A stretch of DNA of 64,000 bases from a virus (Duplodnaviria; Heunggongvirae; Uroviricota; Caudoviricetes). Below are positions 24,019 to 53,973 of this stretch, in pieces. A model generated the notes under the pieces. That model had not been told where the DNA came from and made no database searches. It saw only the letters and a program-made list of their open reading frames with translations. Both the position numbers and the translations under genes were made by a program. Each line of letters starts with the position of its first letter. Within the stretch, counting starts at the first letter, position 1. The stretch is from IMG/VR virus record IMGVR_UViG_3300046096_000179, positions 63,124 to 127,123 of that record. One strand, given 5' to 3'.

Positions 24019-24291
24019 TACATTGTTGCATAAATACAACAGTATAAAGCGGTGGTTACTTGCTGCGTTTATTGTAGCAGCATGCATGGCTTATCCGCTG
24101 GCTTTGCTGAGTGCATGATGCGGGTGCTGGCGTTTGTATAGCAAGACCGTTTGACCTGACGGTCGCACTAGCGTGAGATGATGCAAGGGTATAAAATAGA
24201 ACGATCGCGCTATTATTAGCGCTGGGAATATCTCGAATGGCTCTCTGAGGGTAACTTCAGGGGGCCTTTTCGCATGGACAATGTGCATATA

Positions 24292-24858: not shown

Positions 24859-25044
24859 GCAGACTCCTTGTTTGTTTTAGAAGATGTTTAGAGGTAGCAG
24901 AGACTGCGAATCTCGTGGCTACCAACTTTATTTAGGGTTTCTTGATTTTGATGATAAAAAGTTGCGTTGTGGCCTAAAAGTTGTGATACAATACAGGCAT
25001 CGGACGTTGATTCGATTCAAACCTAACCATGAAGGACTAACCAA

Positions 25045-25671
25045 ATGTCAAATGAACTCACCCCATCGCAAGCAGCACTCATCCCACAGTACGTTTCGGA
25101 ATATGTGGCACACGGTTTCTACACCAGTTCCGGTACCCGTGAAGATGATGAACACATCGCTCGTGCAACCGAGCGCGCATACAAGAACGCTATTTCCCGC
25201 AAGCGCCACGATTCCATCACTAAGGTTCCGATGGTCGTGGTTGGTTCCATGAAGCAAGTCGTTCACATGATGAAGCAAACCATTCAAGGTGATGCCGACG
25301 CAATCAAATCCACGATTCAATCTGCTCGTCACAATGGTCAATTCCAAGCAGCAACTGATGCTCGATTCATGTTTCACTTGGAAGTTCTTGGGGTGGGTGG
25401 GGACGCGCTTGAATGGCATTGCGTATCTCCTTTGTACCGCAAGAACGGTGGGGTGTTTTTATTTCCTGAAATTTGTTTCTGCGTTCGTCCACCGATCCGT
25501 TTTGATGATGACTCTGACGGCAATCCCGTTCCGATCTGGAATGAAGAATCTGCGCCGACTGTTTATACACCTCAGAATCCAACTGACATCAACGATGTCA
25601 CGAAATACTCCGTTGAAGACATCGAAGACCTCCCCAACACCGTTGTCATTCAGGGAAAGAGCTTCCTTTAA
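25045..25671 (+). CDS. hypothetical protein
   Basis: Driven by ttgtgatacaatacaggca cassette variant between the two GIY-YIG genes. Confidence 0.55.
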   Translation: MSNELTPSQAALIPQYVSEYVAHGFYTSSGTREDDEHIARATERAYKNAISRKRHDSITKVPMVVVGSMKQVVHMMKQTIQGDADAIKSTIQSARHNGQFQAATDARFMFHLEVLGVGGDALEWHCVSPLYRKNGGVFLFPEICFCVRPPIRFDDDSDGNPVPIWNEESAPTVYTPQNPTDINDVTKYSVEDIEDLPNTVVIQGKSFL

Positions 25672-26902
25672 GCACAAAGTTAACGGGAAGGGGTTTGCTA
25701 AACATTGATTGGACTACGTAATACGTTTTGTTAGTCAAAACATCAACATACCCTTCCCTGCCAAGCTTCCCACTCTTGATGCTGATGTATCTCCCTTCCC
25801 CATATGTTCGGTTAAGGGATTTCATCACGCCAATAAGGAATACTTCATCTACGGTATCCCACAGATATTCAAATCGACCAAAATCACCTCGTAATATTTC
25901 GTTGGTGATTTTGTCTTCTGTGTTTTTATGTCTTGATGTCCGTATGCGATCAATGATGATTGGTGAGTGACTGGCGTTTTCTACGCCATATCTTTCTCTC
26001 ATCGTATCTTTGGCCTTCTCTCTAACTATCGGACACAGCAGTGCGGTTTCAACGCCACGGCTTTCCATATTGGTTTGCCTACTCTTGGCTTGAATCTCGG
26101 GAGACTTCATTTGATGATCGACCCCATATCGATCCATCAATGTTGATGTAGCTTTTGCTCTAACCACGGGACATTGTAGTACACTCCCAAATCCTCGTCG
26201 TTCCATGTTGGTCTGTTTGGTCTTTTCCCGGATTTCTTGTGCCTGCTGTGGAAATTCCGTTCCATATCTCTCAGTCATGGTCTGTCGGAATCTATCATGC
26301 GATTCTGGATTATGCATTGGATTTTCGACTCCATATCTATCATTCATGGTCTGTCGAACGGTTGCTTTAACTTCTTTGGCTTGCATTGGGTGGTCAACTC
26401 CCCATCTCTCTTGGCATGTTTTCTTAGCCATTTCCATGACTTCAGGTAACTGCAACGTGCAATCAACTCCATGACGAGCCTGATTTGTCTGTCTGATGGA
26501 TTCTATAAATGCTGGATGATGGGAGACGTTTTCGACGTCATATCGGTCTCTTAGGATGTTCTTAAATTCTTCCGAACCAAATGCGGGGCGTTTGTTGTTG
26601 TGCATATTGAACCACTCTGATGAAGCAGCACAATTATTCTCAACCAAGAAATTTGTCTCGTAGTCATGGACATTGCCAATTTCATCTATGGTCTTAATTT
26701 CGACCACGACAAATGCATCAATGCCTTCTTCCTTGATGATTTTCTTAATCTTCTTGGAACTGGTTTTGTAACCATCTTCGGTCATGAACTCTGATGGATG
26801 ACAGCCTTTGGCAAAGCGACAACCGGCATACTTCTTTCCAGAAGCAACATGCTGAATGACGTAAAAGTAAGGGACGTGCGGATAAATAGGTTTGCTGGAC
26901 AT
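25646..26902 (-). CDS. GIY-YIG homing endonuclease with seven tandem ~33-aa repeats
   Basis: PIYPHVPYFYVIQHVASGKKYAGCRFAKG; repeats of the form ...R(Y/W)GV(E/D)(N/H)PM..PE(V/I)..K... Confidence 0.8.
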   Translation of the reverse strand: MSSKPIYPHVPYFYVIQHVASGKKYAGCRFAKGCHPSEFMTEDGYKTSSKKIKKIIKEEGIDAFVVVEIKTIDEIGNVHDYETNFLVENNCAASSEWFNMHNNKRPAFGSEEFKNILRDRYDVENVSHHPAFIESIRQTNQARHGVDCTLQLPEVMEMAKKTCQERWGVDHPMQAKEVKATVRQTMNDRYGVENPMHNPESHDRFRQTMTERYGTEFPQQAQEIREKTKQTNMERRGFGSVLQCPVVRAKATSTLMDRYGVDHQMKSPEIQAKSRQTNMESRGVETALLCPIVREKAKDTMRERYGVENASHSPIIIDRIRTSRHKNTEDKITNEILRGDFGRFEYLWDTVDEVFLIGVMKSLNRTYGEGRYISIKSGKLGREGYVDVLTNKTYYVVQSMFSKPLPVNFVLKGSSFPE

Positions 26903-27078
26903 GCAGACTCCTTGTTTGTGTTAAGAATGTTTAGAGGTAGTGGGAACGCCAATTCCGCGACTACCAACTTTATTTAGGGGTTCTGGATTTTTGATGATAA
27001 ACTGTGATACAATACATACATGAACAATCAACACTCAACCAACAATACTGGCGTCATCCCCGGTAAGTCTGAACTCTG

Positions 27079-27261
27079 ATGCAAATAGAAAATCTACCCA
27101 CGATCCAAGAATGCTATACATCCGTAAGTGTTGGGTTGTGGGTAGTTCTTCGAGAAACAATTTTCAGCATGTCGGACGCCAACACGGTAGACTCTTTGGA
27201 TGACCCGTTGTATGTTGCGGTTGCTAGTGACGTCGATTGGGTGTTTAATGAAAACTACTGA
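27079..27261 (+). CDS. DLP-leader family (MQIENLPTI...)
   Basis: Downstream of the aactgtgatacaatacatac cassette. Confidence 0.45.
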   Translation: MQIENLPTIQECYTSVSVGLWVVLRETIFSMSDANTVDSLDDPLYVAVASDVDWVFNENY

Positions 27262-27415
27262 CCTTCCTGTTTTGGCACCAATTGTCTCTGGTGTATTGAA
27301 GGCTGATGCGTGGCATCATATCATCTGGGTATCAATGACCTCTACACCATGGGATAATCTTGGGAAGAAGGTGCGCGCTTCTCTGATTAAATTGATGCCG
27401 TATGATATCTTCTAA
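27248..27415 (+). CDS. DLP-leader family (MKTTDLPVL...)
   Basis: Leader. Confidence 0.5.
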   Translation: MKTTDLPVLAPIVSGVLKADAWHHIIWVSMTSTPWDNLGKKVRASLIKLMPYDIF

Positions 27416-27584
27416 TCTTCCACAAATCAAACTGCCACACGCCATGAACTGGTATGTACATCAAATGGATGCCGCAACAAGCGTGATGATGTTGAAATCC
27501 ATCAAGATTTGGGATGCTGTATACCAACAAGTTGATTGGGCTGTCTCTGACCATTTGTGGAGATTGACCGATGAAAACATCTGA
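27402..27584 (+). CDS. DLP-leader family (MISSNLPQI...)
   Basis: Leader variant. Confidence 0.5.
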   Translation: MISSNLPQIKLPHAMNWYVHQMDAATSVMMLKSIKIWDAVYQQVDWAVSDHLWRLTDENI

Positions 27585-27753
27585 CCTGCCACAAATCAGA
27601 TCATCCTACGGTGAAGTCTTTGGCGTTGGATTATGGGCAGTTCTTAGAAAAGTTGCTTCTGAAACTGACCTGTATATTGCAGCAGAAGAACGACCATGTG
27701 TTGTTGATGTAAATGTTGATCGGATTTTGTGGAATATTTACTACTTGTTATGA
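27571..27753 (+). CDS. DLP-leader family (MKTSDLPQI...)
   Basis: Upstream stop lies in accgATGAaaacatcTGA. Confidence 0.5.
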   Translation: MKTSDLPQIRSSYGEVFGVGLWAVLRKVASETDLYIAAEERPCVVDVNVDRILWNIYYLL

Positions 27754-27827
27754 AAACATCTGAATTATCAAAAAATCCAACTAAAACCAAGTCCTCTGAA
27801 CTTGTCATGGAGAGTAATCATTGGTAA
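27750..27827 (+). CDS. DLP-leader family, very short (MKTSELSKNPTKTKSSELVMESNHW)
   Basis: Approximate coordinates; may be a decayed member. Confidence 0.3.
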   Translation: MKTSELSKNPTKTKSSELVMESNHW

Positions 27828-27913
27828 TTCCTTTCCGTGGGGATTGGCTATAATAAAAGGTATTGATGCGGATGACTCGGGGTGGCAAGTTCTGAAACGA
27901 TTGGTTGGTAAAA

Positions 27914-28033
27914 ATGAAAATCTCTGACATACCGAAAATTGACCATGTGTTGTATAATACATGCGCCGCTTCTTGGTATGCCGGTGATATGGACGGCGCA
28001 TCATACGAGATGGTAAAAATAATCAAGATTTGA
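27914..28033 (+). CDS. DLP-leader family (MKISDIPKI...)
   Basis: Approximate coordinates. Confidence 0.35.
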   Translation: MKISDIPKIDHVLYNTCAASWYAGDMDGASYEMVKIIKI

Positions 28034-28101
28034 AATTTTGGTTACCAGCAAGTGGATTGGGCTGTCTCCGAGCATCTGTGGTATATTAGAGTTGATTGAA
28101 T

Positions 28102-28266
28102 ATGAAAACATCTGACCTGCCGAAAATCCAAGTTGAGAGCCAGAGTATTTTGAGCGTGTCGTGGAAAGCAATCATACCATGTCTGCCGTGGTCGAACGAT
28201 CCGTCAAATATGCGGCCGGACGTTCATTGTCACCTACGTTGGTTGATTAAGCATGAAAACCTCTGA
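28102..28266 (+). CDS. DLP-leader family (MKTSDLPKIQVE...)
   Basis: Stops at the TGA inside the next member's TCTGAC. Confidence 0.45.
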   Translation: MKTSDLPKIQVESQSILSVSWKAIIPCLPWSNDPSNMRPDVHCHLRWLIKHENL

Positions 28267-28456
28267 CCTACAATACATACAGAACATAGATAATGGTTAC
28301 TTGGATGACGCACCGTCGGACACTTACTTTGCAGTAGTCGAAGACTCCACATTATTTGGATACCAATCCCCTTACCTATGGGACTTGGTTGACGCAATTG
28401 ACGATCCATTATTTAAAATCGAAATTCACATCTATGACACCTACCATGATCAATAA
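28253..28456 (+). CDS. DLP-leader family (MKTSDLQYI...)
   Basis: Leader. Confidence 0.5.
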   Translation: MKTSDLQYIQNIDNGYLDDAPSDTYFAVVEDSTLFGYQSPYLWDLVDAIDDPLFKIEIHIYDTYHDQ

Positions 28457-28943
28457 ACTGACTCCATATTTCACCCCACTAGGAATTGACGTCTCCAAGG
28501 TTCCATTCCATGACGGTTTTGCTGGCTCGATTTATGTCGGACAGTTTCCCTATGCAGGTAAGAATCGTCAAGGTGAACTGACATTCCTTGACTATCCAGT
28601 AGATGTCTTCTATCAACCGAATCCCAAGGTTGAACTGGGGCATTCCCATTACTTCTCGGTCTATACTCGTCATGGTCATTCCTATGTCAGCGATGCATCC
28701 TATGTCACTGACCTAAGGCTTAATGGCGTTGTTGACTCCACTGGCAATATCCTGTATGCTAGGTTCCAGCATGACTTCCGATATACCAATGACGGTAATG
28801 CCGGGGTTGATGGTGGTGGATGGATGAAAGATGGTGATGTCTGGAGTATGTGGGGTCGCACCATTGGTGATAAGGATGGAAACTTCCCCAAGATGGTTCT
28901 GCTCCGTGTTGTTGATGGAAAGCTGGTGCAGGATGAAACTTAA
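28434..28943 (+). CDS. hypothetical protein (about 169 aa) embedded in the array, without the leader
   Basis: Track ORF 28356..28943; first plausible ATG (MTPTMINKL) lies at the end of the preceding member. Confidence 0.45.
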   Translation: MTPTMINKLTPYFTPLGIDVSKVPFHDGFAGSIYVGQFPYAGKNRQGELTFLDYPVDVFYQPNPKVELGHSHYFSVYTRHGHSYVSDASYVTDLRLNGVVDSTGNILYARFQHDFRYTNDGNAGVDGGGWMKDGDVWSMWGRTIGDKDGNFPKMVLLRVVDGKLVQDET

Positions 28944-29131
28944 ACAGCTATCGGTCATTGAACCATCAATGTCGTTTGTCAACATCAAAAAAAGAGTTGA
29001 CTCCATCTCCGGTAGGAGAGGGTTTGATTATGTTTCAAGGTCTTACCTATGGGTTGACATGATCAACGCGGATTTTGGTAGAGAACTTTTTACGGCGGTT
29101 CATTCGGCATTCAGTGGGTGCGTCCGTGGAA

Positions 29132-29302
29132 TTGAGTGAACTGCCGAAGTCTCATCAGTTAGCGGCGAGATTTGATGTAATTAGTCGCCCACTCGCTGGC
29201 GGCATTTTAAGCGCGATCATGGAGAATGAGCATAATGTATGGCGATGGGTGCGTTATCCGGTGCAGCAAGTTCTTGAACGGGTAAATGATGAAATCTTCT
29301 GA
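29132..29302 (+). CDS. DLP-leader family, TTG-start variant ((M)SELPKSHQ...)
   Basis: ttgagtgaactgccgaag matches the minus-strand TTG variant at 50357. Confidence 0.4.
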   Translation: MSELPKSHQLAARFDVISRPLAGGILSAIMENEHNVWRWVRYPVQQVLERVNDEIF

Positions 29303-29483
29303 CCTACCGAAAATACCAATCCCAAGAACCGGGTGGAATGTCTGTTTTGATGCGCATGTTTCGATGAATGACGCATTGGATGAATCATCTGGGATTGAGG
29401 TGCAGTCCGAAGTGATTAACAAAATCGCGTTTCCGGTCTTGGGTATCATGCGCCGGATTTGTGCCAGTACACCGAGTTCTTGA
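29286..29483 (+). CDS. DLP-leader family (MMKSSDLPKI...)
   Basis: Leader. Confidence 0.5.
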   Translation: MMKSSDLPKIPIPRTGWNVCFDAHVSMNDALDESSGIEVQSEVINKIAFPVLGIMRRICASTPSS

Positions 29484-29491
29484 ACGAGTGA

Positions 29492-29692
29492 ATGATGAAA
29501 TCTTCTGACCTGCCAACCATTGCTGTCCCTATCACGAACTTCCATGTTGTTCATGATGTATCAATCCTGTTTGGTGATTTTCTTGGTTTCGCCGAGTACG
29601 AAACATTTGATAAAATCAGAACGCCTGTGATGAATTCTTTGATTCCAACACTTTTTTCCATGGAACTCGAATTTTTAAGTTATAAAATATAA
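29492..29692 (+). CDS. DLP-leader family (MMKSSDLPTI...)
   Basis: Leader. Confidence 0.5.
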   Translation: MMKSSDLPTIAVPITNFHVVHDVSILFGDFLGFAEYETFDKIRTPVMNSLIPTLFSMELEFLSYKI

Positions 29693-29694
29693 CC

Positions 29695-30129
29695 ATGAAC
29701 CAACCCTACATTCAAAATGTTTCACGTCAGGCTCTTGCAACCGGTCAGCACCTCAGACCCAGTGACAATACAATTCTGATTCAGATTGCCGACTGTATTC
29801 AGGGATGCCCTACTCCAACACCCAACAATACCTTCGTTGAAATCCATCAGTTCAACTTCATGGACTCTGAGGAAGATGACCCAATGTTCCCACCAGAGGC
29901 AAAGATCACCACAGAACAAGCCAAGGAAATTGTTGGCATCCTTCGGAATGCATTGGCTAAAAATCAGAACGTGATTGTCCATTGCAATGCCGGTCTTTGT
30001 CGGTCAGGTGCTGTTGCTGAGGTTGGTGTCATGATGGGATTCACGGATACCTTTGCCACTAGGATTCCAAACCTGATGGTCAAGAAGTATCTGATGCGAG
30101 AACTTGGCTGGCTTTATGAAGATCGATGA
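29695..30129 (+). CDS. Cys-based protein phosphatase (dual-specificity/PTP-like, CX5R)
   Basis: VHCNAGLCRSGAV active-site P-loop. Confidence 0.7.
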   Translation: MNQPYIQNVSRQALATGQHLRPSDNTILIQIADCIQGCPTPTPNNTFVEIHQFNFMDSEEDDPMFPPEAKITTEQAKEIVGILRNALAKNQNVIVHCNAGLCRSGAVAEVGVMMGFTDTFATRIPNLMVKKYLMRELGWLYEDR

Positions 30130-30268
30130 CTTACCAAAGATTCACTTGAGTGAATGCAAAGACCTTGCACATTTGATTCGACTCCCACATGGAACATCTT
30201 CAATTGTGATGACTGTCAGCATGCGATGGTCGTTTAAAATCAATCATGCTCTTGGGTTTCGGTTGTGA
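30116..30268 (+). CDS. DLP-leader family (MKIDDLPKI...)
   Basis: Overlaps the phosphatase stop; approximate. Confidence 0.4.
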   Translation: MKIDDLPKIHLSECKDLAHLIRLPHGTSSIVMTVSMRWSFKINHALGFRL

Positions 30269-30447
30269 AAACCTATGAACTACCAAAAATCAATGCAAAA
30301 GACTGGAGCGTCGTAGAATTCTCCGTTACCTTTCTTGGAGGTCATGTTGGAGTTTCTGACTCTGGAGCGAAGCTAAAGACTTACAAAATCACCAATGAAG
30401 TTCACCAAAATTTCGGCGAAATTGTTAGAAACCTGTGGATTCTGTGA
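30265..30447 (+). CDS. DLP-leader family (GTG start; (M)KTYELPKI...)
   Basis: Leader; last member of the array. Confidence 0.45.
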   Translation: MKTYELPKINAKDWSVVEFSVTFLGGHVGVSDSGAKLKTYKITNEVHQNFGEIVRNLWIL

Positions 30448-36466: not shown

Positions 36467-36475
36467 AATAAAATT

Positions 36476-36550
36476 CCTGAATAGCATAACGGTAGTGCCG
36501 AGAACTCATAATTCTTAAAGTGCTGGTTCGAACCCAGCTTCAGGAACCAA
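36476..36550 (+). tRNA. tRNA-Met (anticodon CAT; could also be a lysidine-modified tRNA-Ile2)
   Basis: Full cloverleaf by hand: acceptor tcctgaa/ttcagga, D gcat-aacggta-gtgc, anticodon gagaa-ctCATaa-ttctt, T gctgg-ttcgaac-ccagc, discriminator a, encoded CCA. Confidence 0.85.
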
Positions 36551-36569
36551 TCAAAAAGCGAAAGTAAAC

Positions 36570-36821
36570 ATGCCAGCAATTGTCAGAAAAGGTGACAAGG
36601 ATACGGATGACGACGCCATGGTCACCGGCTCTCCAAATGTCTTTGTTAACGGTATCGCTGCAACCAGACATGGCGACAAGGATACGGATGACGACCAGAC
36701 CATCACCAAAAAACCATGGAATGTGTTCATCAATGGAATTCCAGTATCCAAGGTTGGAGACAAGGATACGGACGATGACACGAAAATGCAGGGATCACCC
36801 AATGTTTTTGTCAATGATTGA
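36570..36821 (+). CDS. PAAR-repeat protein (T4 gp5.4-like tail-spike tip)
   Basis: Three repeats GDKDTDDD...GSPNVFVNGIAATRHGD, matching the PAAR consensus GSPxVFINGKPAARxGD. Confidence 0.65.
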   Translation: MPAIVRKGDKDTDDDAMVTGSPNVFVNGIAATRHGDKDTDDDQTITKKPWNVFINGIPVSKVGDKDTDDDTKMQGSPNVFVND

Positions 36822-38856: not shown

Positions 38857-38939
38857 ATCGGATAGAAACAACCGCCTTAAATGGCGGTTTCTTTTTTCCG
38901 GCTACCGTAAATAGTTACCATGTAAATGGAGAAAATACC

Positions 38940-39155
38940 ATGGTAACCAAAAGAAGTAAAAAAGTCAATTCCTACATAATCCAGAGATTGCAGGAGCCAT
39001 CAACCATTCGTGGTCTGATCTTGGTCGCTACTGTTGCTGGTGCCAAACTTAGTCCCGATATGCAGTCGGCCATCTTGGAGATGGGTCTACTGCTAAGTGG
39101 ACTGTTTGCCGTTGCAACACCAGATAAATACAAAGGTCAACTACCTAACAGCTAA
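38940..39155 (+). CDS. small membrane protein; its last codons and stop (..LPNS-stop) lie inside the MITE terminal hairpin
   Basis: RBS ggagaaaatacc ATG; C-terminus encoded by ctacctaacagcTAA. Confidence 0.45.
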   Translation: MVTKRSKKVNSYIIQRLQEPSTIRGLILVATVAGAKLSPDMQSAILEMGLLLSGLFAVATPDKYKGQLPNS

Positions 39156-39371
39156 CGACTATTAGGCTTGCCCGTTCCTCATTCAAACTAAGGCTCTTAT
39201 GTCCTTAGACCTCTCGGTTTTAATCGAATGTTTCTTCAAGGCCATCGGGGGCATTACCCCCGCTTCCGCTATTGCATCGGAATGTTTTTTTGTTTGGTGT
39301 TGAACTTGGTTTTCGTTCAACTTACTATTTAACCCTTTCACAATTCATCCTAACAGCTAAAGACTGTTAGG
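39144..39371 (-). mobile_element. MITE-like deletion derivative (PATE) of the IS200/IS605-family tnpB element, inverted relative to it
   Basis: Both ends carry the 23-nt palindrome cctaacagcta(a/c)(a/c)gact(g/a)ttagg seen at the tnpB element ends; inner flank gaattgtgaaagggttaaatagtaag matches the tnpB 5' flank ggaattgcgaaagggtaaatagtgac; no ORF. Confidence 0.6.
39246..39292 (+). terminator. tandem hairpins (cgggggcattacccccg; ttccg-ctattgcat-cggaa) then T7 run, inside the MITE
   Basis: GC-rich stem-loops followed by ttttttt. Confidence 0.45.
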
Positions 39372-39390
39372 TCTCCTTGCCTAAACATAT

Positions 39391-40164
39391 ATGAACCATA
39401 ATCCGTTTTATCATGGAATCGTCAGAAAGCTGATTGTTGCAGTGGGGTCTATCTTCACCGGGATCAAGATTGAGCGCCGGAACTCACTGGGTGCTGTTGA
39501 GCAGACGATTGATGTCCCTGTATCATACGGTAACCGCGAGAAGTGGCTCCAGAGGCTTCAAGAGGAACCGGAACTGGATAAACGTGTCTTGGTATCCCTC
39601 CCAAGAATCGGGTTTGAGATGACCGGCCTGTCGTATGATCCGGCTCGGAAACTGAACAAGCTGACCCAACTAAGGACATGCGGAGAGACGACCCCCGGAA
39701 ACATTTCTACGGCATTCTCCCCTGTACCATACAACATTGACTTCACGGTTTATGTGATGACCAAGACTCAAGAGGATGGTCTGCAGATTGTTGAACAGAT
39801 TCTGCCATACTTCTCACCCCAGTATGTCATTTCAGTTAATCTGATTCCTGAGATGGGGGTTGTTCAGGATGTTCCATTTACGCTGAATGGTGTTGTGGTG
39901 GATGATTCCTACGAAGGCCCAATGGAAAACCGCCGGGAGATCATCTATACTCTGAACTTCACGGCCAAGACCGAATTCTTGGGGCCGATCAATACCGGCA
40001 GCAATGGTGTGATTATGCACACCCGAGTCAAGATTGATCCGATGTATGGTGAGATTGCTCGTCAGGTAAATACCGATGCGACCGGAACGCCTGAGAATCA
40101 TGTCATCGTGGATGACTTCTTTGACATTGCCAGACCGATAGTGAATCCACCTCCGGTCTTCTGA
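39391..40164 (+). CDS. hypothetical protein
   Basis: 257 aa; convergent with the MTase. Confidence 0.55.
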   Translation: MNHNPFYHGIVRKLIVAVGSIFTGIKIERRNSLGAVEQTIDVPVSYGNREKWLQRLQEEPELDKRVLVSLPRIGFEMTGLSYDPARKLNKLTQLRTCGETTPGNISTAFSPVPYNIDFTVYVMTKTQEDGLQIVEQILPYFSPQYVISVNLIPEMGVVQDVPFTLNGVVVDDSYEGPMENRREIIYTLNFTAKTEFLGPINTGSNGVIMHTRVKIDPMYGEIARQVNTDATGTPENHVIVDDFFDIARPIVNPPPVF

Positions 40165-47330: not shown

Positions 47331-47467
47331 TTGTTTGTTTCCATTGCCAAGTCTCTGGCTTCACGTTCTGAATCTGCTTCCACTTCGACTTCTTCCGAGT
47401 AGGTGTAGATTTTCTTTACAATGAAAGTTGGCATAATGTAGTTTCCTTGTTTGATGACTCTATTGTA

Positions 47468-47797
47468 TCACAGAAAATGTCGGCGATTCACCAAGCAAAC
47501 ACTCATCGTTTTCCCGCCATTGACAGAATGGACTTCCCATCCTTCAAATTCAGGGAAGTAGATTTCCGTCCAGTTGGAATCGTCATTGCCATCAGAGATC
47601 AGCATTGATGGGAAGAACGTCAACTTTCCGTCAGTCATCACGGAACGACAAGGAGTTTCGCAGTAGGCGCGTCCAGTATTACCCCATCCATCCAAACAGA
47701 AAGCAACGACGTTATCAGCCCGGATGACCATGTAGCCTTCTTCACCAACAACGGCATCGCCTTGATGATTAACTGTAACTTTGATCGTATTGGACAT
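47468..47797 (-). CDS. hypothetical protein
   Basis: Minus-strand cassette immediately upstream (47798..47850). Confidence 0.5.
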   Translation of the reverse strand: MSNTIKVTVNHQGDAVVGEEGYMVIRADNVVAFCLDGWGNTGRAYCETPCRSVMTDGKLTFFPSMLISDGNDDSNWTEIYFPEFEGWEVHSVNGGKTMSVCLVNRRHFL

Positions 47798-47850
47798 GAT
47801 GTGGTTCCTTGTTTCGATGGTTCTATTGTATCACAGAAAATCAACTGTAG
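47798..47850 (-). promoter_or_regulatory. promoter-leader cassette (minus strand)
   Basis: Reverse complement is ctacagttgattttctgtgatacaatagaaccatcgaaacaaggaaccacatcATG. Confidence 0.6.
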
Positions 47851-47855
47851 TCGAT

Positions 47856-48401
47856 TCAAGTCCACAGACTTCTGTAGTATTTTCCGAACAATCTCAAACC
47901 ATTGGCGATTCGTTTCTGTCGCTGATCATGTTTAACAAACTCTCCATTCAGAATCATCTCAGTTTCTTCATCGTCACAAACAATCTGCTCAAATGTCCAG
48001 ATCATCTCATCAAGAATCCACACCCACCGCGCATGGAAATGCCCATCGGTGTGATAGTCGTCCTCTGCAGGGAGTAGAGTCGAGTGTAGCCAGATTGGTA
48101 CATCAGAGTCCTCTGTGTATGGAGAGCCGTGCTTCTGTTCTTTGAGCTTTTTCAGCATTGGTAAGATGATGAGCGCCAGAGTGTGATCGGTATTCCAAGT
48201 ATCAAAGTCATCGATCCGAACATCAATCTTTCGCTTCTTCTTAGAATGCACCCACTCACAGAAGTCATTGAGCCAAGTCTCGGATAGCCATTCACCAAAC
48301 GCGTAAACACGGTCATCTTCCTTGTCCATCCAGAACAGAAGTATTCCGGCTATCTGGTATGGCCCATACCAAGTGGTGTAGTTTGAGATTTTAACTTTCA
48401 T
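47856..48401 (-). CDS. hypothetical protein
   Basis: 181 aa. Confidence 0.5.
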   Translation of the reverse strand: MKVKISNYTTWYGPYQIAGILLFWMDKEDDRVYAFGEWLSETWLNDFCEWVHSKKKRKIDVRIDDFDTWNTDHTLALIILPMLKKLKEQKHGSPYTEDSDVPIWLHSTLLPAEDDYHTDGHFHARWVWILDEMIWTFEQIVCDDEETEMILNGEFVKHDQRQKRIANGLRLFGKYYRSLWT

Positions 48402-48419
48402 TATATTGTAGTAGGGAAA

Positions 48420-49745
48420 CCTAACCGTCTTTAGCTGTTAGGAGGAATTGCGAAAGGGTAAATAGTGACATGGAACAACTCAAAGCATTCAAATATAGAA
48501 TCTATCCGACAGCAGATCAAATCAATCGGTTGTCACGGTTCTTTGGTGCAAAGCGTTGGGTCTATAATCACTTCTTGAAGTCTAACACTGAACGCTACAA
48601 AAATCAAGAGAAGCATCTATCTAATTTTGATTGTAACAAAGAAATCACATTCCTCAAGAAAAATGCTGATACATCTTGGTTGAAAGATGTTGACGATTGG
48701 GTCTTGAAACATGCTTCAGAGGACTTGGCAACAGCCTACAAAAACTTCTTTGCTTCTATTACTGGTAAGCGCAAGGGACCGAAAGTTGAACTCCCGACGT
48801 TCAAGAAGAAGTCAAACAGACAATCATACCGGACTCGCGGCGTGAAGGTTGATTTTGAAAATGGCACATTCACTGTGCCGAAAATCAAAAACATACCATG
48901 CAAGTTCCATCGACATTTCCTTGGAACTATCAAGAACGCAACCATCTCCAAAACTCCTGATGGGAAGTATTTCGTTTCATTCTTGGTTGATGCCAACGTC
49001 GCATTGCTGCCACAAACAGAGCGCGAAGTTGGCATTGACTTTGGGATTAAATCATTGGCGGTTCTATCCACCGGACATGAAATTCAGCCATTGAACACAC
49101 AGCTTGAGAAAATCAATCGAGCTATCAAACGTGCTCAGAGAATCCTTGCACGAAAAACAAAGGGTTCGACGAACAGAGAGAAGCAACGAGTATTACTGGC
49201 TAAATTATTTGCCCGGAAGACTCGAATACGCGAACACTATTATCACGAGATTTCGAGTTTTTTGGTCAAGAACTTTGATGCAATTTACTTGGAATCACTG
49301 AATATCAAAGGGATGATGAAGAACAGGAAACTGTCCAGAGCAATCCAAGAATGCTCGTGGTTTTCGCTGATCTCAAAAATATCATACAAATCCAACTTCT
49401 ACGGTAAGACCTTTCACCAGATTTCCAGATGGTTCCCATCATCCAAGACTTGTTCTTGTTGTGGGTTCAAACTGGACAAGTTAAGCCTTGACGTTCGTGA
49501 ATGGTCGTGCCAATCTTGTGGAACACATCATGATCGTGACCTAAACGCTGCCGTGAATATCCTATACCAAGGGCAGATGGATTTGTATGAACAAAAACAA
49601 CCGCAGGAAACAGGCGGTTTGGAACTAAAAATTCCATATTCCTTGCAGAAACATACCACTAAAATCGAGAGATCAGCGGAAGAAATTGCCGTTGTTGGTA
49701 TGTGGAGCAGGAAAGCCTAACAGTCTTTAGCTGTTAGGTAGTTTA
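48420..49745 (+). mobile_element. IS200/IS605-family insertion sequence carrying only tnpB (IS1341-like)
   Basis: Terminal palindromes cctaaccgtctttagctgttagg (48420..48442) and cctaacagtctttagctgttagg (49716..49738) flank an intact tnpB; same ends found on the MITE at 39144..39371. Confidence 0.7.
48470..49720 (+). CDS. tnpB: TnpB (OrfB_IS605 RNA-guided RuvC-like nuclease)
   Basis: N-terminal AFKYRIYPT...FG..RWVYN; RuvC-I GIDFGIK; RuvC-II YLESLN; zinc finger CSCCGFK...CQSCG; RuvC-III HHDRDLNAAVNI. Confidence 0.85.
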   Translation: MEQLKAFKYRIYPTADQINRLSRFFGAKRWVYNHFLKSNTERYKNQEKHLSNFDCNKEITFLKKNADTSWLKDVDDWVLKHASEDLATAYKNFFASITGKRKGPKVELPTFKKKSNRQSYRTRGVKVDFENGTFTVPKIKNIPCKFHRHFLGTIKNATISKTPDGKYFVSFLVDANVALLPQTEREVGIDFGIKSLAVLSTGHEIQPLNTQLEKINRAIKRAQRILARKTKGSTNREKQRVLLAKLFARKTRIREHYYHEISSFLVKNFDAIYLESLNIKGMMKNRKLSRAIQECSWFSLISKISYKSNFYGKTFHQISRWFPSSKTCSCCGFKLDKLSLDVREWSCQSCGTHHDRDLNAAVNILYQGQMDLYEQKQPQETGGLELKIPYSLQKHTTKIERSAEEIAVVGMWSRKA

Positions 49746-49897
49746 CTTTTGATGTTGTTTAGAGATTCATAGATGTCATCATACATTTTGCTACATTCTC
49801 GAATGAAGAAGTAGACTGTCGGCGGTGGTCTACCTACACGAAACCCCAATCGGAATGGCTTGACCCATCGACTACCGATTCTTGGTAGATCATTCAC
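49727..49897 (-). CDS. DLP-leader family (GTG start (M)NDLPRI...) ending ...KLPNS-stop inside the IS right-end palindrome
   Basis: Stop TAA lies in ctacctaacagcTAAagactgttagg (reverse complement of 49716..49745). Confidence 0.4.
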   Translation of the reverse strand: MNDLPRIGSRWVKPFRLGFRVGRPPPTVYFFIRECSKMYDDIYESLNNIKSKLPNS

Positions 49898-50043
49898 TCG
49901 CATTTGGTTGACCTTAATATTGACTCGATTTTGTTTTGCATGTCGTGCAAATCCTCACAGTAGCTTGGATAAGCAATCCTGTTGTCTATCTCAACTAGAA
50001 CGTTAACATAAACATGAATCTTAGGTAATTCAGAGGTCTTCAT
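49894..50043 (-). CDS. DLP-leader family (MKTSELPKIHVY...)
   Basis: ATGAAGACCTCTGA overlap with the upstream stop. Confidence 0.45.
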   Translation of the reverse strand: MKTSELPKIHVYVNVLVEIDNRIAYPSYCEDLHDMQNKIESILRSTKCE

Positions 50044-50194
50044 TGATTTTAACCAAGTTGACAGTTGACTCGTTGATACCAGCCCTTGCTACAGCACAAC
50101 CTCCCGGCGGTAACGGATAAGGCCACCACCATTGAATGAACAATAGCAATATACTATCGTGTTCGTGAATCTTTGGAAGGTCAGAAATTCTCAT
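50030..50194 (-). CDS. DLP-leader family (MRISDLPKI...)
   Basis: Internal start at M54 of track ORF 50030..50353. Confidence 0.45.
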   Translation of the reverse strand: MRISDLPKIHEHDSILLLFIQWWWPYPLPPGGCAVARAGINESTVNLVKINEDL

Positions 50195-50204
50195 TCGATT
50201 CGAT

Positions 50205-50357
50205 CTACGTTGAGACTGTATGGTTTGAGCCAACGAAATGTTCCATGATTCCAAAGAAAGTGGCTCGGAAATAAAGAATATTTCCACTACCACATACCTC
50301 TCCCATGACTTTAAATCTTGCCCAACCGGTATGACCGATCTTTGGTAGTTCACTCAA
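50205..50357 (-). CDS. DLP-leader family, TTG-start variant ((M)SELPKIG...)
   Basis: ttgagtgaactaccaaagatcgg, same as the plus-strand variant at 29132. Confidence 0.35.
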   Translation of the reverse strand: MSELPKIGHTGWARFKVMGEVCGSGNILYFRATFFGIMEHFVGSNHTVST

Positions 50358-50517
50358 TTTCACAATGCTTCGTCAAGTTGATTTTGGAATCCATCATCCC
50401 ACCCAATGCAAGTTTAAACATTGATATTCCGCCAATGTAGATGGTATACCCGATTCCGTGCTTTATATCCAAGGAAATACCATCTATGTGAATCTTTGGT
50501 ATTTCAGAAGTCTTCAT
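50350..50517 (-). CDS. DLP-leader family (MKTSEIPKI...)
   Basis: aaaATGAagacttctgaaatacc; ATGA overlap with the cupin gene stop. Confidence 0.45.
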   Translation of the reverse strand: MKTSEIPKIHIDGISLDIKHGIGYTIYIGGISMFKLALGGMMDSKINLTKHCEIE

Positions 50518-51038
50518 TTTTGTTTTGGAACATCAAACACCAGAGTCAGTCTATCCACGTCAGACACATTCTTGGCGCTATGGGGCTTCTTGTTGTCAAA
50601 CCAGAAGAAAGTCCCCGGCCTGATTATACGCGATTCTCCATCCACTGTATATTCATAATCCCCCTGAATGGACAGATGGTATCTATCCCGAGTCAGATAG
50701 TATGCGCCATCATCAATATGGGTAGACACAGCACCGCCGGGAGGCAGACGAAAGAATGCACACCGGGAGATGTTCTTCAGACCATACCGAGCCCAGAATG
50801 CATGCACCGATGGGAACAGTTTATATGCCCGTGTATTGGCCTGAAGTTCAGAGTCCTTGATGTTATCTCCGGGATTCTGGATAGCGCCCATGATCAGAGG
50901 CAGGAAACCGGGTGGGTTCTTATCACCACCAATGTTCTGCATCTGACTGACCATGCTCCACATAGAGGAATTCTGCTCAAGTTGAATCAGGATGTCCTGA
51001 ATCGGCTCTTGCATGGATATGATGCGAAAATTATTCAT
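50514..51038 (-). CDS. cupin-fold protein, possibly an Asp/Asn beta-hydroxylase-like oxygenase (tentative)
   Basis: RLPPGGAVSTHIDDGAYYL...KPHSAKN suggests an HxD...H metal site. Confidence 0.4.
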   Translation of the reverse strand: MNNFRIISMQEPIQDILIQLEQNSSMWSMVSQMQNIGGDKNPPGFLPLIMGAIQNPGDNIKDSELQANTRAYKLFPSVHAFWARYGLKNISRCAFFRLPPGGAVSTHIDDGAYYLTRDRYHLSIQGDYEYTVDGESRIIRPGTFFWFDNKKPHSAKNVSDVDRLTLVFDVPKQK

Positions 51039-51063
51039 TTGATTGGTGGCTTTACTAAGTTTA

Positions 51064-51228
51064 TCACAGAGAATCGCCCAATGCTGCTAACTGAAGCATA
51101 ATTGCTTTACCACCAAGGAGTTCTTTGGCTGCTATGCAATAGATGATGGTATTTTCAGAAAATGTAAACTTACATTCAAAAATGTCTTGGATGTGATAAT
51201 TGTTTGATGGCAGGTCACTCACTCGCAT
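51064..51228 (-). CDS. DLP-leader family (MRVSDLPSN...)
   Basis: Internal start M33 of track ORF 51064..51324. Confidence 0.45.
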   Translation of the reverse strand: MRVSDLPSNNYHIQDIFECKFTFSENTIIYCIAAKELLGGKAIMLQLAALGDSL

Positions 51229-51389
51229 TGGATTCAAGCTCTTCAATTCGATTTGCTGCTTCCTCCAGCAGTGAAGCCAACCGATCCGACTCTCCATTCT
51301 GGACAGACCGGCGACCAACAGCATTCTTACGAATTTCGGCTCGGATTCTTAGCTTCTGAACAAGAGATTGCGTATCAAATGGTGGGTAA

Positions 51390-51671
51390 TCACGACCAAC
51401 CATACTTTGCCTTCAGTTGAACGTAGGTTTTCCGATCAATCACTTCCTGCAAAAGATACCGTTGTGTATACTCAGTCATTTCTTCTGGCGTCATGTCTCG
51501 CTCACCACGAAAAGAAACCAATCCATGTTCAACATCATCAACCAACACGTTAGTCAATCCTTTATAACACATTTCATTCTTCACCGAAATGAAATTGTCA
51601 ATCGTTGCTGAGATGTCAGCACCAATTTCGATGTAGACGGTTTTGTAGTTACTGATTTTTGGATAGTTCAT
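51390..51671 (-). CDS. hypothetical protein
   Basis: 93 aa. Confidence 0.5.
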   Translation of the reverse strand: MNYPKISNYKTVYIEIGADISATIDNFISVKNEMCYKGLTNVLVDDVEHGLVSFRGERDMTPEEMTEYTQRYLLQEVIDRKTYVQLKAKYGWS

Positions 51672-52033
51672 TCAATGTCCCCACGGTTAATGCAGCGCAA
51701 TGCGTTGCGGTGTTGTTCTGCGGCTTCTTTGGTTCGGTGGGCCACGCCTTCGGCTATTACCTTTTCAATCCCTGCTTTAGAACAAAGATACTGAACTCCA
51801 CAATTATCGAATGTCCAAACATCACTCTTGATCGGAACCTCTTTAAGCGGTTCCTGCCATTCATGGCGACCTACGCGAATCATTTTAACTTCTGAGGGCT
51901 TGCTTCGGCATTCAACGTTTTTATGGAATGATGGTGACAGTGTGTCAACCCACCCCCAGTGTTCTTTGATTTGAATTTTAATCGTGCAGTCGTCTGCATA
52001 GGCTTTCATCAATTCGGCATGTGGGTGTTTCAT
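51668..52033 (-). CDS. hypothetical protein
   Basis: Minus-strand cassette variant (ttacaatagaacc) upstream. Confidence 0.5.
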   Translation of the reverse strand: MKHPHAELMKAYADDCTIKIQIKEHWGWVDTLSPSFHKNVECRSKPSEVKMIRVGRHEWQEPLKEVPIKSDVWTFDNCGVQYLCSKAGIEKVIAEGVAHRTKEAAEQHRNALRCINRGDIE

Positions 52034-52092
52034 GATTTAGGTTCCTTTTGTTGGTTTAGATGGTTCTATTGTAACACCAAAATCAACTGTAG

Positions 52093-52551
52093 TCAATCTC
52101 TACACAAAAACTTTTCCATGAACACTCCCTTTATGCTCTTGGAGTCGTCCTCAACTCCAAGTTCCTTGACCACCTTGGACATGACCAACTCGTTTGGCAA
52201 CCGAGATTTCTTTTCCAAGGTGAACCCAATCTTCTCTCCGGCAATAGCAACCGCAGAGCTACGACAGACTCCTGCATAGCAATGGACAACCACATCCCAT
52301 CCATTCCTATAACTGTTCAACAGGATGTTTGCAATTCTCTTGGCATCATCGTTTGTAATGGCGTTGTGATTGTTTTTGTCTTCTGTATCCTCGAAGATGA
52401 ATCGACAGACATATTTGAATTCATCTGGTGGTCGAGGAAACTGTCCTTCATCCTCATCAAGAATCTGGATTAAGACTGTATTCTTTGTGTCAGTGACAAC
52501 ATAATTTCCTTTTTGGATGTCATCCTTGGAATAGTGTTGGATCGTTGGCAT
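52093..52551 (-). CDS. Cys-based protein phosphatase (CX5R), paralogue 2
   Basis: VVHCYAGVCRSSAVA. Confidence 0.7.
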   Translation of the reverse strand: MPTIQHYSKDDIQKGNYVVTDTKNTVLIQILDEDEGQFPRPPDEFKYVCRFIFEDTEDKNNHNAITNDDAKRIANILLNSYRNGWDVVVHCYAGVCRSSAVAIAGEKIGFTLEKKSRLPNELVMSKVVKELGVEDDSKSIKGVFMEKFLCRD

Positions 52552-52867
52552 TATGTTCTTTCAGGAATGTTTCGATGTGGCGTAGCGCGTCTTCAGCTTG
52601 ACATGCCGAACAGTCGCTAACATATTGAGCGTCGCATTGTACTCTGGAAATGATATCACGGATGAACTCAATCGACGTTTGGTTGCTCTGTTGAACAGGA
52701 GCAAGAACAAACCCGCCATTCACGGCAGGGTCTGTTGCAACGTCAATGTGCCAGTTGATCAGTTCATCAAGTTTCTTCTTGGCTTTATCGTAACTGTCAG
52801 AAGAATCAGCAATTCCAAGATGAGCAGAAACGAGTTCTGTGTCAACGGCTCTTTGATATGGGTTCAT
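52520..52867 (-). CDS. hypothetical protein
   Basis: 115 aa. Confidence 0.5.
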   Translation of the reverse strand: MNPYQRAVDTELVSAHLGIADSSDSYDKAKKKLDELINWHIDVATDPAVNGGFVLAPVQQSNQTSIEFIRDIISRVQCDAQYVSDCSACQAEDALRHIETFLKEHNANDPTLFQG

Positions 52868-52944
52868 TTCAATTCTTTCAAGATTTCATTGCACATTTCG
52901 AGACAATAATCGACTTTCCTTCGTGTGGTTTCGATGGCGCGGGA

Positions 52945-53289
52945 TCATCTGGCCGGATACCTTGGCACCATATCCACATAGAAACGTTCGTTCATCGGCT
53001 TGTGCGAATCTGCTACCGGAAGTTGTGACGGCGTTTGTGCTGAAGGTTTGTCAAAGACCATCTTGGTTACAAATTCCAATGAATTATTAGCTGCGGCAAT
53101 TGATTCTTGAATCTGCATATGTCGCTCGATTTCTATAACTACCCGAGACCACACCGGTGAGTGTAATAGAATTGCATGGACGTACCCACGCGAATCTGGT
53201 TCAGCCCCATGTGCTACTTGCTGGTCTGGGTCAATACCGCGCAGCTTACACAGATGACGGGCTGCTTTCTCAAGTTGTTCTGGGGTCAT
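52945..53289 (-). CDS. hypothetical protein in a GC-rich island
   Basis: High GC; shares 16-nt repeat ggtttcgatggcgcgg with the next gene. Confidence 0.45.
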   Translation of the reverse strand: MTPEQLEKAARHLCKLRGIDPDQQVAHGAEPDSRGYVHAILLHSPVWSRVVIEIERHMQIQESIAAANNSLEFVTKMVFDKPSAQTPSQLPVADSHKPMNERFYVDMVPRYPAR

Positions 53290-53807
53290 TCCTGTACTCC
53301 AAACTGTTTGCGTACTGCGGTTTCGATGGCGCGGGCGAACTTTGTTGGGGCATAGGTAAAGTCAACCTGCTCCATGACCTGCGAAAGCTGTTCATCCGTC
53401 AACCGTGGCGGTGTTTGCGCTGGGGGTGCGGGGGTTAACGCTTGACGCACAGCCGCATCCAATTCTTCATGCGCCGTGCGCTTCAGGTTGGTGCTGCCTG
53501 TCAGGTGTGCGTCCCGGAAGTCATAGGCGGCACCCATGATTGAGCCGTACACCGATTCATCATCAGCGTGTGTTTGCGCTGGGGGTGCGGCGGCGTACAG
53601 TTCAGTGCCATTCTTCATCTCGTCGTAAAGCTGCACAAGCGAACCATCCGCACACTCTCCGATGTATTTCGCCGCCGGCTCCCCCGGCTTCAGCGCAGCC
53701 TCAAGGGCTGTACGGAGTTCCGACTCTGCTCTTGTCTTTGCTCCAATGCTGAGAGCGTTAGCCATTGCCCAAGCCAGCACCATCAAATCGTCAATTTGTT
53801 TGGTCAT
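53286..53807 (-). CDS. hypothetical Ala/Pro-rich protein in a GC-rich island
   Basis: High GC; internal nucleotide repeat gtttgcgctgggggtgcgg at about 53418 and 53566; cassette upstream (53808..53868). Confidence 0.5.
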   Translation of the reverse strand: MTKQIDDLMVLAWAMANALSIGAKTRAESELRTALEAALKPGEPAAKYIGECADGSLVQLYDEMKNGTELYAAAPPAQTHADDESVYGSIMGAAYDFRDAHLTGSTNLKRTAHEELDAAVRQALTPAPPAQTPPRLTDEQLSQVMEQVDFTYAPTKFARAIETAVRKQFGVQE

Positions 53808-53868
53808 AATAAAGTTCCCTTTGTTTCGATGGTTCTATTGTATCGCAGAAAAATCAAATGTAGTCAAT
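53808..53868 (-). promoter_or_regulatory. promoter-leader cassette (minus strand)
   Basis: Reverse complement is ctacatttgatttttctgcgatacaatagaaccatcgaaacaaagggaactttattATG. Confidence 0.55.
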
Positions 53869-53973
53869 TGCTTGCAAGAATTTGCGACAAAATCGTCCCC
53901 GTGTTGCGTTTAGCTTTAGGCACAAGGATTGCTAATCGAAACAAATACCGAATCTGGTTGCAATCTAGGTTGT

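Follow-up and report, generated by a model that had tools for sequence, protein, structure and literature searches.

A probable 255-bp PATE with an omegaRNA scaffold upstream of gp15 in an uncultured T4-like phage

A 255-bp block directly upstream of the tail sheath stabiliser gene gp15 in an uncultured T4-like myovirus is very probably a non-autonomous element (PATE) with an intact omegaRNA scaffold. The overall reading that we favour, at a probability of roughly 0.6, is that of an internally deleted, non-autonomous member of IS200/IS605, belonging to a tnpB-only, IS1341-like lineage of T4-like aquatic phages. Current activity of the element, of any kind, is much less certain. The DNA analysed was a 64-kb window, part of the genome of this phage, which also carries a full-length tnpB element (hereafter, the resident element).

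Ends of the element and its insertion site

An earlier note on this DNA had pointed to one palindrome shared by the ends of the block and the ends of the tnpB element. A pattern scan of the 64 kb with up to 3 mismatches allowed recovered the 23-nt palindrome CCTAACAGTCTTTAGCTGTTAGG at four sites, where 0 were expected, and 100 shuffles yielded none. The palindrome is confined to element ends, namely both ends of the 1,345-bp tnpB element and both ends of the flagged block. Pairwise alignment to the resident ends, which the note had proposed, extended the homology past the palindromes: 39329-39389 aligns with 48402-48462 at the left end (LE; 82% over 61 nt), and 39131-39241 aligns with 49641-49751 at the right end (RE; 77% over 111 nt). 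The inner flank of the LE does match the 5' flank of tnpB, and the sequence next to the RE palindrome does resemble the tnpB 3' end, as the note had described. Similarity limited to the palindromes, the outcome that the note had named as speaking against its reading, is therefore not what was observed.

Table 1. Features of the 255-bp element, its insertion site and the resident tnpB element
Feature	Position	Strand	Remarks
Whole non-autonomous element (PATE)	39136-39390	-	255 bp: LE, tnpB 5' remnant, omegaRNA scaffold, RE
Candidate TAM/target site TTCAT	39391-39395	-	Equals gp15 start ATGAA on the plus strand
LE outer segment ATATGTTTAGGCAAGGAGA	39372-39390	-	In all relatives, 18-19 nt of homologous sequence separate TTCAW from the palindrome
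LE subterminal palindrome	39349-39371	-	8-bp stem, 7-nt loop; identical to resident RE palindrome
LE inner segment, tnpB 5'UTR remnant carrying GGGTTAAATA	39321-39348	-	Alignment to resident 5'UTR
Remnant of ~7 first tnpB codons	39300-39320	-	ATG -> TTG, now a small hairpin; alignment to resident tnpB
Complete omegaRNA scaffold	39136-39298	-	Covariance model R1 match; ~160 nt
T7 (plus)/A7 (minus) run	39285-39291		Immediately 5' of hairpin A; ~8 nt inward of the deletion junction
omegaRNA hairpin A	39264-39282	-	UUCCG..CGGAA, loop AUGCAAUAG; helix 1, 5/6 pairs covary in the family
omegaRNA hairpin B (GC hairpin cgggggcattacccccg)	39246-39262	-	Helix 2
RE subterminal palindrome	39144-39166	-	2 changes: C>T giving U.G, loop T>G
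RE tail TAGTTGAC	39136-39143	-	Conserved 3' end of scaffold and element
Predicted guide 5'-CUUUGUAUUUAUCUGG	39120-39135	-	Position only, by analogy with the ISDra2 omegaRNA
71-aa gene upstream of gp15	38940-39155	+	Last 6 codons and stop (GQLPNS*) from element RE
gp15 tail sheath stabiliser gene	39391-40164	+	PF16724, E 8.1e-65; 5' leader now element LE
Palindrome CCTAACAGTCTTTAGCTGTTAGG sites	39144-39166, 39349-39371, 48420-48442, 49716-49738	-, -, +, +	Pattern scan
Resident full-length tnpB-only element	48402-49746	+	1,345 bp; empty site in L209/L211
Resident candidate TAM TTCAT	48397-48401	+	Adjoins resident LE
Resident tnpB	48470-49720	+	416 aa; HTH_OrfB_IS605, OrfB_IS605 and Cas12f-TNB Pfam domains
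Resident omegaRNA	49587-49746	+	Model R1, 148 bits
Resident predicted guide	49747-49762	+	By position

The element had previously been placed at 39144-39371 (228 bp). According to the ends of its relatives and the empty site of the resident copy, its true extent is 39136-39390 (255 bp). The boundaries were set by comparison of full-length relatives (eight left ends and nine right ends); the ends compared were those of the window copy, L092, L093 (RE only), L095, L100, L101, L110, L191 and L192 (RE only). The 8 nt beyond the palindrome read TAGTT(G/T)AC or TGGTTGAC in each compared RE, and the consensus (T/C)(A/G)(G/A)TT(G/T)AC is kept in most family members, with flanks diverging thereafter. 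On the LE side, TTCA(T/A) is followed in every compared relative by 18-19 homologous nt, after which the palindrome begins. TTCA(T/A), or TTCAW, was located at the same offset before the LE in 13 of the 13 ends examined (eight full-length elements, the 255-bp element and four solo hairpins). The element outreaches its palindromes by the 8-nt RE tail, down to 39136, and by the 19-nt LE outer segment, up to 39390. The TTCAT next to the LE is a candidate TAM, which may be recognised by TnpB or TnpA. The stem of the LE palindrome covaries among relatives, for example as CCTAACGA..TCGTTAGG.

The two ends of the element, ATATG.. and ..GTTGAC, are unrelated, its two palindromes are direct copies, and its flanks GGTTCAT and CTTTGTA are without duplication. 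As terminal inverted repeats and a target-site duplication are lacking, this is not a classical MITE of the kind derived from DDE transposons; the MITE label given to it earlier holds only if the term is used loosely, for any small non-autonomous element. In the LE, the 28-nt 5'UTR remnant was identical to the resident 5'UTR at 22 of 27 positions, as counted by eye on the alignment. The deletion junction lies at approximately 39299, and about 1.1 kb of tnpB is gone. The statement that tnpB itself is deleted was accurate: no tnpB ORF lies between the element ends, and no Y1 or TnpB gene was found inside the 255 bp. The sole remnant is a 52-codon GTG ORF (39183-39341, minus strand), which shares its reading frame with the TnpB C-terminal tail and reads ..SDAIAEAGVMPPMALKKHSIKTERS...

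Comparison with related phages indicates that the 255-bp block is an insertion. In L103-L109, whose gp15 is 69-77% identical to that of the window, the order of DUF6433 gene, small ORF and gp15 is retained, the small ORF runs up to or into the start of gp15 (junction of 0-4 nt), and the spacer is absent. At this identity the relatives are too distant to serve as allele-level empty sites, and ..AAATACAAAG|ATGAACCAT is therefore a predicted form of the site before insertion. The small protein ends in ..ATPDKYKETEKQE in L103, compared with ..ATPDKYK|GQLPNS in the window. The junction k-mers at the gp15 site are AAATACAAAG|ATGAACCATAATCC for the predicted empty form and ACAAAGGTCAACTACC and AAACATATATGAACC for the occupied form. 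The nearest cultured relatives of gp15 belong to Methylophilales phage Melnitz (47% at the amino acid level) and to cyanomyoviruses.

In the presence/absence check suggested earlier, the spacer was lacking in these related phages, and no strain-level polymorphism was seen among contigs with identical gp15 or TnpB. Such contigs, obtained from several JGI and Logan samples, are at least 98.6% identical and represent one genome. The element is present on each contig that encodes the identical gp15, and an allele of this phage with an exact empty site was not found.

For the resident copy, the boundaries deduced from relatives were confirmed by an empty site in L209 and L211 (..gaatctctaaagaacgtcaaat|ATGAAAGTTAAAATC), according to which the insertion was precise and caused no duplication. 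The window carries the whole of 48402-49746 between ..caaaa and ATGAAAG, and the empty-site form reads ..caaa(a/t). L209-L212 are related phages, in which the neighbouring 181-aa gene is 79-88% identical to that of the window. Resident TnpB matched ISDra2 TnpB structures over residues 4-366 (E 4.6e-72), and D190/E275/D357 (the RuvC triad) and four zinc-finger cysteines are invariant in the 22-member TnpB family alignment. Judged by these residues and matches, the resident TnpB is intact and ISDra2-like.

The omegaRNA scaffold

As modelled by covariance, the 3' part of the element is the omegaRNA of this TnpB clade, with its scaffold intact. This RNA is located on the tnpB-sense strand and spans the tnpB 3' end and the RE. 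The scaffold alignment comprised the 3' regions of 14 full-length elements and the 255-bp element (15 sequences), on which RNAalifold predicted seven helices with 40 pairs, 29 of them with compensatory changes. Paired cells amounted to 98.1%, against 26-41% when partners were slid by 1-3 columns. The covariation score was 0.66, compared with at most 0.10 in controls, and the observed values were reached by none of 500 shuffles. The scaffold is arranged as hairpins A and B, two long-range stems, a small hairpin, hairpin C, the RE hairpin and the 3' tail. G.U pairs are frequent (e.g., pair 133-157 in 13 of the 15 sequences), and their number establishes the tnpB-sense strand as the RNA strand.

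Covariance model R1 (160 model positions), built without the flagged element, had exactly two full matches in the 64-kb window. The resident copy scored 148 bits and the element 144.5 bits (E 8.5e-36, model positions 1-160 of 160), and the match on the element stopped precisely at the RE boundary. Together with the homologous ends, this score upholds the earlier proposal of an inverted, non-coding PATE with an orphan omegaRNA scaffold. The element forms 38 of the 40 consensus pairs (37-40 in full-length members) and keeps every one of the 36 scaffold positions at which the family does not vary. It differs from L092, the closest relative, by 24 substitutions; eight pairs are changed, of which seven still pair, two of them via double changes. 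Hairpin A has lost its basal pair in the element. In the resident copy the counterpart of hairpin B is UGGAA..UUCCA; in L092 it is CGGGGG..CUCCCG. The T7 run aligns with AAACAACC, the ..KQP.. codons of full-length elements. When the whole element was folded, the minus-strand RNA reached -73.7 kcal/mol and the plus-strand RNA -57.0 kcal/mol, a difference of 16.7 kcal/mol. At the Rfam gathering score the scaffold matched no family, and the whole window yielded only a tRNA at 36475-36546.

Possible activity and rival readings

In the favoured reading, the element or its full-length parent inserted 3' of TTCAT, which on the opposite strand reads ATGAA, the start context of gp15. The insertion split a formerly overlapping gene pair, so that the 71-aa gene now ends in the RE and the gp15 leader is now the LE. 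All cis parts are retained, that is, the LE, the 5'UTR, about seven mutated codons, the ~160-nt scaffold and the RE hairpin with TAGTTGAC. Movement would require Y1 TnpA supplied in trans. TnpB is not the mobiliser of such elements, a role that belongs to Y1 TnpA; it could use the RNA for targeted cleavage, retention or homing only. The tnpB copy at 48.4 kb, proposed earlier as a possible mobiliser, is therefore not suited to this task, and a tblastn search of the 64-kb window turned up no Y1 TnpA (best E 1.6).

A minus-strand transcript, if made and if it reads through the RE, would be an omegaRNA with the guide CUUUGUAUUUAUCUGG, as expected from ISDra2. In a compatible TnpB, such as the resident one with which TTCAT is shared, this RNA would cut element-free alleles that carry TTCAT and the guide sequence (predicted target TTCAT+CTTTGTATTTATCTGG). 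Cleavage of these alleles would favour retention or homing through recombination. From sequence, use of the RNA in trans by resident TnpB is plausible; however, the scaffold is of the L092 type, whose cognate TnpB is only 64% identical to resident TnpB, which counts against it. A bolder proposal holds that the element would be a stand-alone guide-RNA gene, loaded by the phage's TnpB and cleaving the 71-aa-gene/gp15 junction of co-infecting element-free phages. We consider this proposal improbable. If true, it would imply RNA-guided homing or marker exclusion between T4-like phages and a second 'spacer' for a viral TnpB, and the IS605 lineage would be a phage-adapted selfish system aimed at start codons (ATGAA). 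An active element would offer a natural test of trans-programming of TnpB by orphan guide genes and of RNA-guided homing between co-infecting phages, comparable to the protein homing endonucleases in T4; an inactive one would be a clean case of IS decay in a phage genome.

No second copy of the 255-bp element was found in the window or in the fetched loci, nor did viral, metagenome and genome collections yield one when scanned, a weak negative because only exact patterns were matched. With a single copy, deletion in place is possible as an alternative to transposition as a short element. A full-length L092-like or resident-like element may accordingly have entered the site upstream of gp15 and been emptied there by a later deletion, leaving an inert fossil that is neither transcribed into a working omegaRNA nor mobile and looks intact because the deletion is recent. 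This account is a serious rival, although we would put the odds against it. It agrees with the lack of another copy in the scanned collections, with a window devoid of TnpA and with the failure to recognise a promoter in the element. Solo-hairpin remnants in related phages indicate that family elements do decay in place, and the remnant ORF, still in the TnpB tail frame, suggests that little time has passed since the deletion. On the other hand, the deletion spared exactly the LE and the complete scaffold, with its junction about 15 nt 5' of hairpin A, and the 24 substitutions relative to L092 left all but one of the changed pairs able to pair, two of them doubly compensated, though these changes may predate the deletion in an unsampled parent.

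Much less probable is an exapted regulator, in which the plus-strand hairpins would act as terminator, attenuator or mRNA stabiliser between the 71-aa gene and gp15, with the LE as gp15 leader. The element does sit in a string of plus-strand genes, directly upstream of an essential tail gene, and several family members and solo hairpins lie just 5' of start codons. The GC hairpin cgggggcattacccccg and the T7 run described in the earlier note are both present; on the plus strand the hairpin is stable (-11.5 kcal/mol), and the run is within 22 nt of it. However, scanning both strands of 39136-39390 revealed no intrinsic terminator, the hairpin next to the T run reached just -3.4 kcal/mol, and the GC hairpin is 22 nt off. 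The terminator reading was rejected on these grounds, and the hairpins once called terminator-like are covarying omegaRNA stems of a minus-strand RNA. This strand is also favoured by the G.U pairs and by its better fold. The start-codon position is explained by the TTCAT target and the survival of non-disruptive insertions, and relatives do without a spacer at this site. Hardly any credence can be given to a generic phage hairpin or terminator reused at IS ends, with the block as ordinary intergenic DNA. The shared 23-nt palindrome is indeed the most eye-catching feature, but homology covers 61 nt at one end and more than 110-160 nt at the other, the palindrome occurs at element ends only, and the whole block is missing from related phages.

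A scan for sigma-70 promoters in the 255-bp element gave none. TAAATA is conserved across all LEs, and this motif of the LE inner segment may have a promoter role. GTAAATA is enriched upstream of window genes, which are not clearly late or structural. A T4 late promoter was considered and dropped, since TATAAATA was without enrichment and the GTAAATA genes are not clearly late.

Origin, family and known systems

Over its 3' 155 nt, the element is 85.8% identical to L092, 83-84% to L095 and L100, 76% to L093 and 73.5% to L101. Its RE is 77% identical to the resident RE, below the values for L092, L095 and L100. The earlier derivation of the block from the tnpB element is correct as to the IS200/IS605 tnpB family; derivation from the resident copy was rejected, as L092 (86%) and L095 and L100 (83-84%) are more identical than the resident element (77%). 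L191 and L192 were likewise rejected as closer parents (77% and 73% over 113 nt). Unlike this 3' part, the 5'UTR of the element resembles that of the resident copy. An L092-like 3' part joined to a resident-like 5'UTR points to a parent from an unsampled or a mosaic/recombinant lineage. L092 TnpB is 88-89% identical to P0002 and P0003 and about 64% identical to resident TnpB. P0002 is encoded in another T4-like phage (L095), which co-occurs in the samples of the window phage.

The TnpB clade comprised 4,618 homologues at E 1e-40 or better and was found solely on phage-like contigs among the contexts examined. Where the flanks of the loci carried recognisable phage genes, these were T4-like (gp13, gp32, UvsX, gp53/gp5, Thy1 and a tRNA array), and the L093 flank is about 69% identical to window DNA. 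Close family members are mostly tnpB-only. A Y1 tnpA lies between the LE and tnpB in L192, a T4-like phage contig whose LE is 84% identical to that of the 255-bp element, and in the more distant L111 and L113. Related phages thus do possess a transposase for these ends. One further candidate PATE, a second omegaRNA match in L119, was discarded, as it belongs to another full-length tnpB, convergent with the first and truncated where the contig stops.

No GenBank phage matched 38000-41000 by megablast, and phage TnpBs in protein searches showed at most 40% identity. The exact palindrome had 0 matches in IMG/VR and 0 in GTDB representative genomes, and was found in the metagenome scan in L092 and L093 only. 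No family member was recovered from 185,579 representative prokaryotic genomes in two scans for exact patterns, which is a weak negative. A 20-mer omegaRNA core pattern matched 15 times in the genome collection, about the number estimated for chance, and 0 of these matches fitted the covariance model; in IMG/VR the same pattern matched the L095 contig only.

PATEs of IS200/IS605 were first named in Haloquadratum walsbyi (PMC3119063), and those of Geobacillus stearothermophilus 'often encode omegaRNAs', which are necessarily used in trans (PMC10055086). Like PATEs, the element is short and protein-less, its LE and RE subterminal hairpins are homologous to those of a co-resident tnpB element, inverted terminal repeats and target duplication are lacking, a fixed pentanucleotide adjoins it, it carries an omegaRNA scaffold, and it is absent in relatives. 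Unlike PATEs, it resides in a lytic T4-like phage, is present in a single copy where several copies or other signs of mobilisation would be looked for, and has a scaffold of a different sub-lineage than the co-resident tnpB, and no TnpA was seen nearby.

IS200/IS605 elements transpose as single strands via TnpA, which recognises the end hairpins, with insertion 3' of the TAM, and TnpB with omegaRNA cuts TAM plus guide, that is, the element-free joint, promoting retention or homing (PMC8612924, PMC10055086). ISDra2 TnpB and its omegaRNA (reRNA) (PMC8612924; 8EXA, 8H1J) resemble the window elements in an RNA that extends over the tnpB 3' end and RE, a guide expected from the flank and a 5-nt TAM adjoining the LE. 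The TAM is TTGAT in ISDra2 and TTCAT here; unlike ISDra2, the window elements are without TnpA, and their scaffold is without an Rfam match. The passages on ISCaje1-4 in PMC2853527 report IS200/IS605 elements of the T4-like Campylobacter phages CP220 and CPt10, both tnpB-only and with tnpA and tnpB, at differing sites in related genomes of virulent phages. As presented in those passages, they are IS elements with genes, from another element lineage and in other hosts. Seg and Mob, the free-standing homing endonuclease genes of T-even phages, are selfish cassettes between conserved genes that spread via cleavage and recombinational repair (PMC13565253). Like behaviour would be possible in principle for a TnpB/omegaRNA pair; the specificity of Seg and Mob is protein-encoded, not RNA-guided.

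OmegaRNA-bearing PATEs in bacteria and archaea are known already, as are IS200/IS605 elements in T4-like phages, to the extent covered by the ISCaje passages (PMC2853527). The literature on phage-encoded TnpB that we found consists of two passing mentions only, and our searches met no report of an omegaRNA-only derivative beside a heterologous intact tnpB in a lytic phage. Of note in the present case is that a lytic phage combines an orphan guide-RNA gene with a TnpB of different descent. The analysis also supplies an uncharacterised TnpB clade with exact element boundaries, a probable TAM (TTCAW) and an omegaRNA architecture of ~160 nt supported by covariation, which could help the mining of compact nucleases.

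Insertion sites and flanking reading frames

At five of the six sites checked, the TTCAT that adjoins the left end (LE) of the element, its candidate TAM, is the reverse complement of the called start codon ATGAA; the elements are therefore placed exactly 5' of start codons. At these sites the native leader and ribosome-binding site have been exchanged for LE sequence, in which no obvious Shine-Dalgarno motif was seen. This placement probably reflects target preference together with the survival of non-disruptive insertions.

At the right end (RE), both neighbouring phage ORFs that reach into the element take their stop codon from within the RE palindrome. The TnpB ORFs of the clade represented by contig L092 likewise terminate within the RE palindrome (..SLTVFSC*).

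Coordinates of element-related and motif features
Feature	Contig	Position	Strand
Start-codon-linked TTCAT	window	39391-39395	
Start-codon-linked TTCAT	window	48397-48401	
Start-codon-linked TTCAT	L095	~18478	
Start-codon-linked TTCAT	L100	2420	
Start-codon-linked TTCAT	L100	13809	
Phage ORF with stop in RE palindrome	window	49727-49903	-
Phage ORF with stop in RE palindrome (71-aa gene)	window	38940-39155	+
Solo hairpin	L095	18436-18458	-
Solo hairpin	L100	2379-2401	-
Solo hairpin	L100	13768-13790	-
Solo hairpin	L100	14407-14429	-
Autonomous relative	L192	2564-2875	-
LE of autonomous relative	L192	2514-2562	
Second tnpB	L209/L210	7552-8796	
Small TnsA-like gene	L209/L210	5672-6112	
~75-nt repeat copies	window	9424-35889	+
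~75-nt repeat copies	window	47427-56552	-
G(G)GTAAATA sites	window	13400-13428, 16903-16940, 38915-38925, 48455-48463	

Mini-elements and relatives

The related phages L095 and L100 carry ~50-nt "solo hairpin" mini-elements (n = 4), each consisting of TTCAT, an 18-19 nt LE outer segment, a single palindrome and an TAGTTTAC-like RE tail. It is as if the two palindromes, which are direct repeats, had recombined and the interior had been removed. Against the omegaRNA covariance model, the solo hairpins scored just 26-31 bits.

An autonomous IS605 relative encoding both Y1_Tnp and TnpB was found beside gp13 and gp32 in a T4-like phage contig (L192), and its LE is 84% identical to that of the window element. 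In the LE palindrome of a further tnpB element (L110, 1414-1436), the stem is unchanged and the 7-nt loop is inverted, reading CTAAAGA instead of the TCTTTAG found in its own RE and in other family members. The related L209/L210 phage is empty at the site of the resident full-length tnpB copy; another tnpB, of 414 aa and with different palindromes, lies ~1.2 kb away, and a small gene in the same phage encodes a product whose N-terminal domain is TnsA-like.

Promoter-like and terminator-like motifs

The motif G(G)GTAAATA lies no more than 60 nt upstream of genes in 5 of its 11 occurrences (five genes), compared with ~0.6 expected. The downstream genes include tnpB, the 71-aa gene, a cytidyltransferase/NUDIX gene and a homing-endonuclease-like ORF; since they are not clearly late, the motif was not assigned to a promoter class. 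Directly upstream of the copy preceding the 71-aa gene, a bidirectional terminator-like hairpin (AACCGCC..GGCGGTT, then a T run; 38870-38889) may mark where the transcription unit holding the window element begins.

A separate family of ~75-nt repeats in the window has the form TTGACTACAG..N..TGTGATACAATAGAACCATC..AAGGAA..ATG (repeat families D1, D3, D4, D6 and D7), with opposite orientation in the window's two halves. These repeats look like sigma-70-type early promoters followed by a leader and ribosome-binding site.

Other repeats and tRNAs

Eleven small genes at 21708-30289 of the window open with near-identical ATGAAAACATCTGACCTGCC (MKTSDLP..; repeat family D5), which suggests a paralogous small-gene family. 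Three 60-nt repeats at 36555-36779, spaced 81-84 nt apart and each with terminal GACAAGGATACGGATGACGAC (repeat family D13), suggest that a gene beside the tRNA gene encodes a repeated peptide module; the tRNA gene itself was detected at 36475-36546 with 62.7 bits. Several tRNA-like sequences, judged by eye, lie at 9130-9900 of L095, directly upstream of the LE of its tnpB element.
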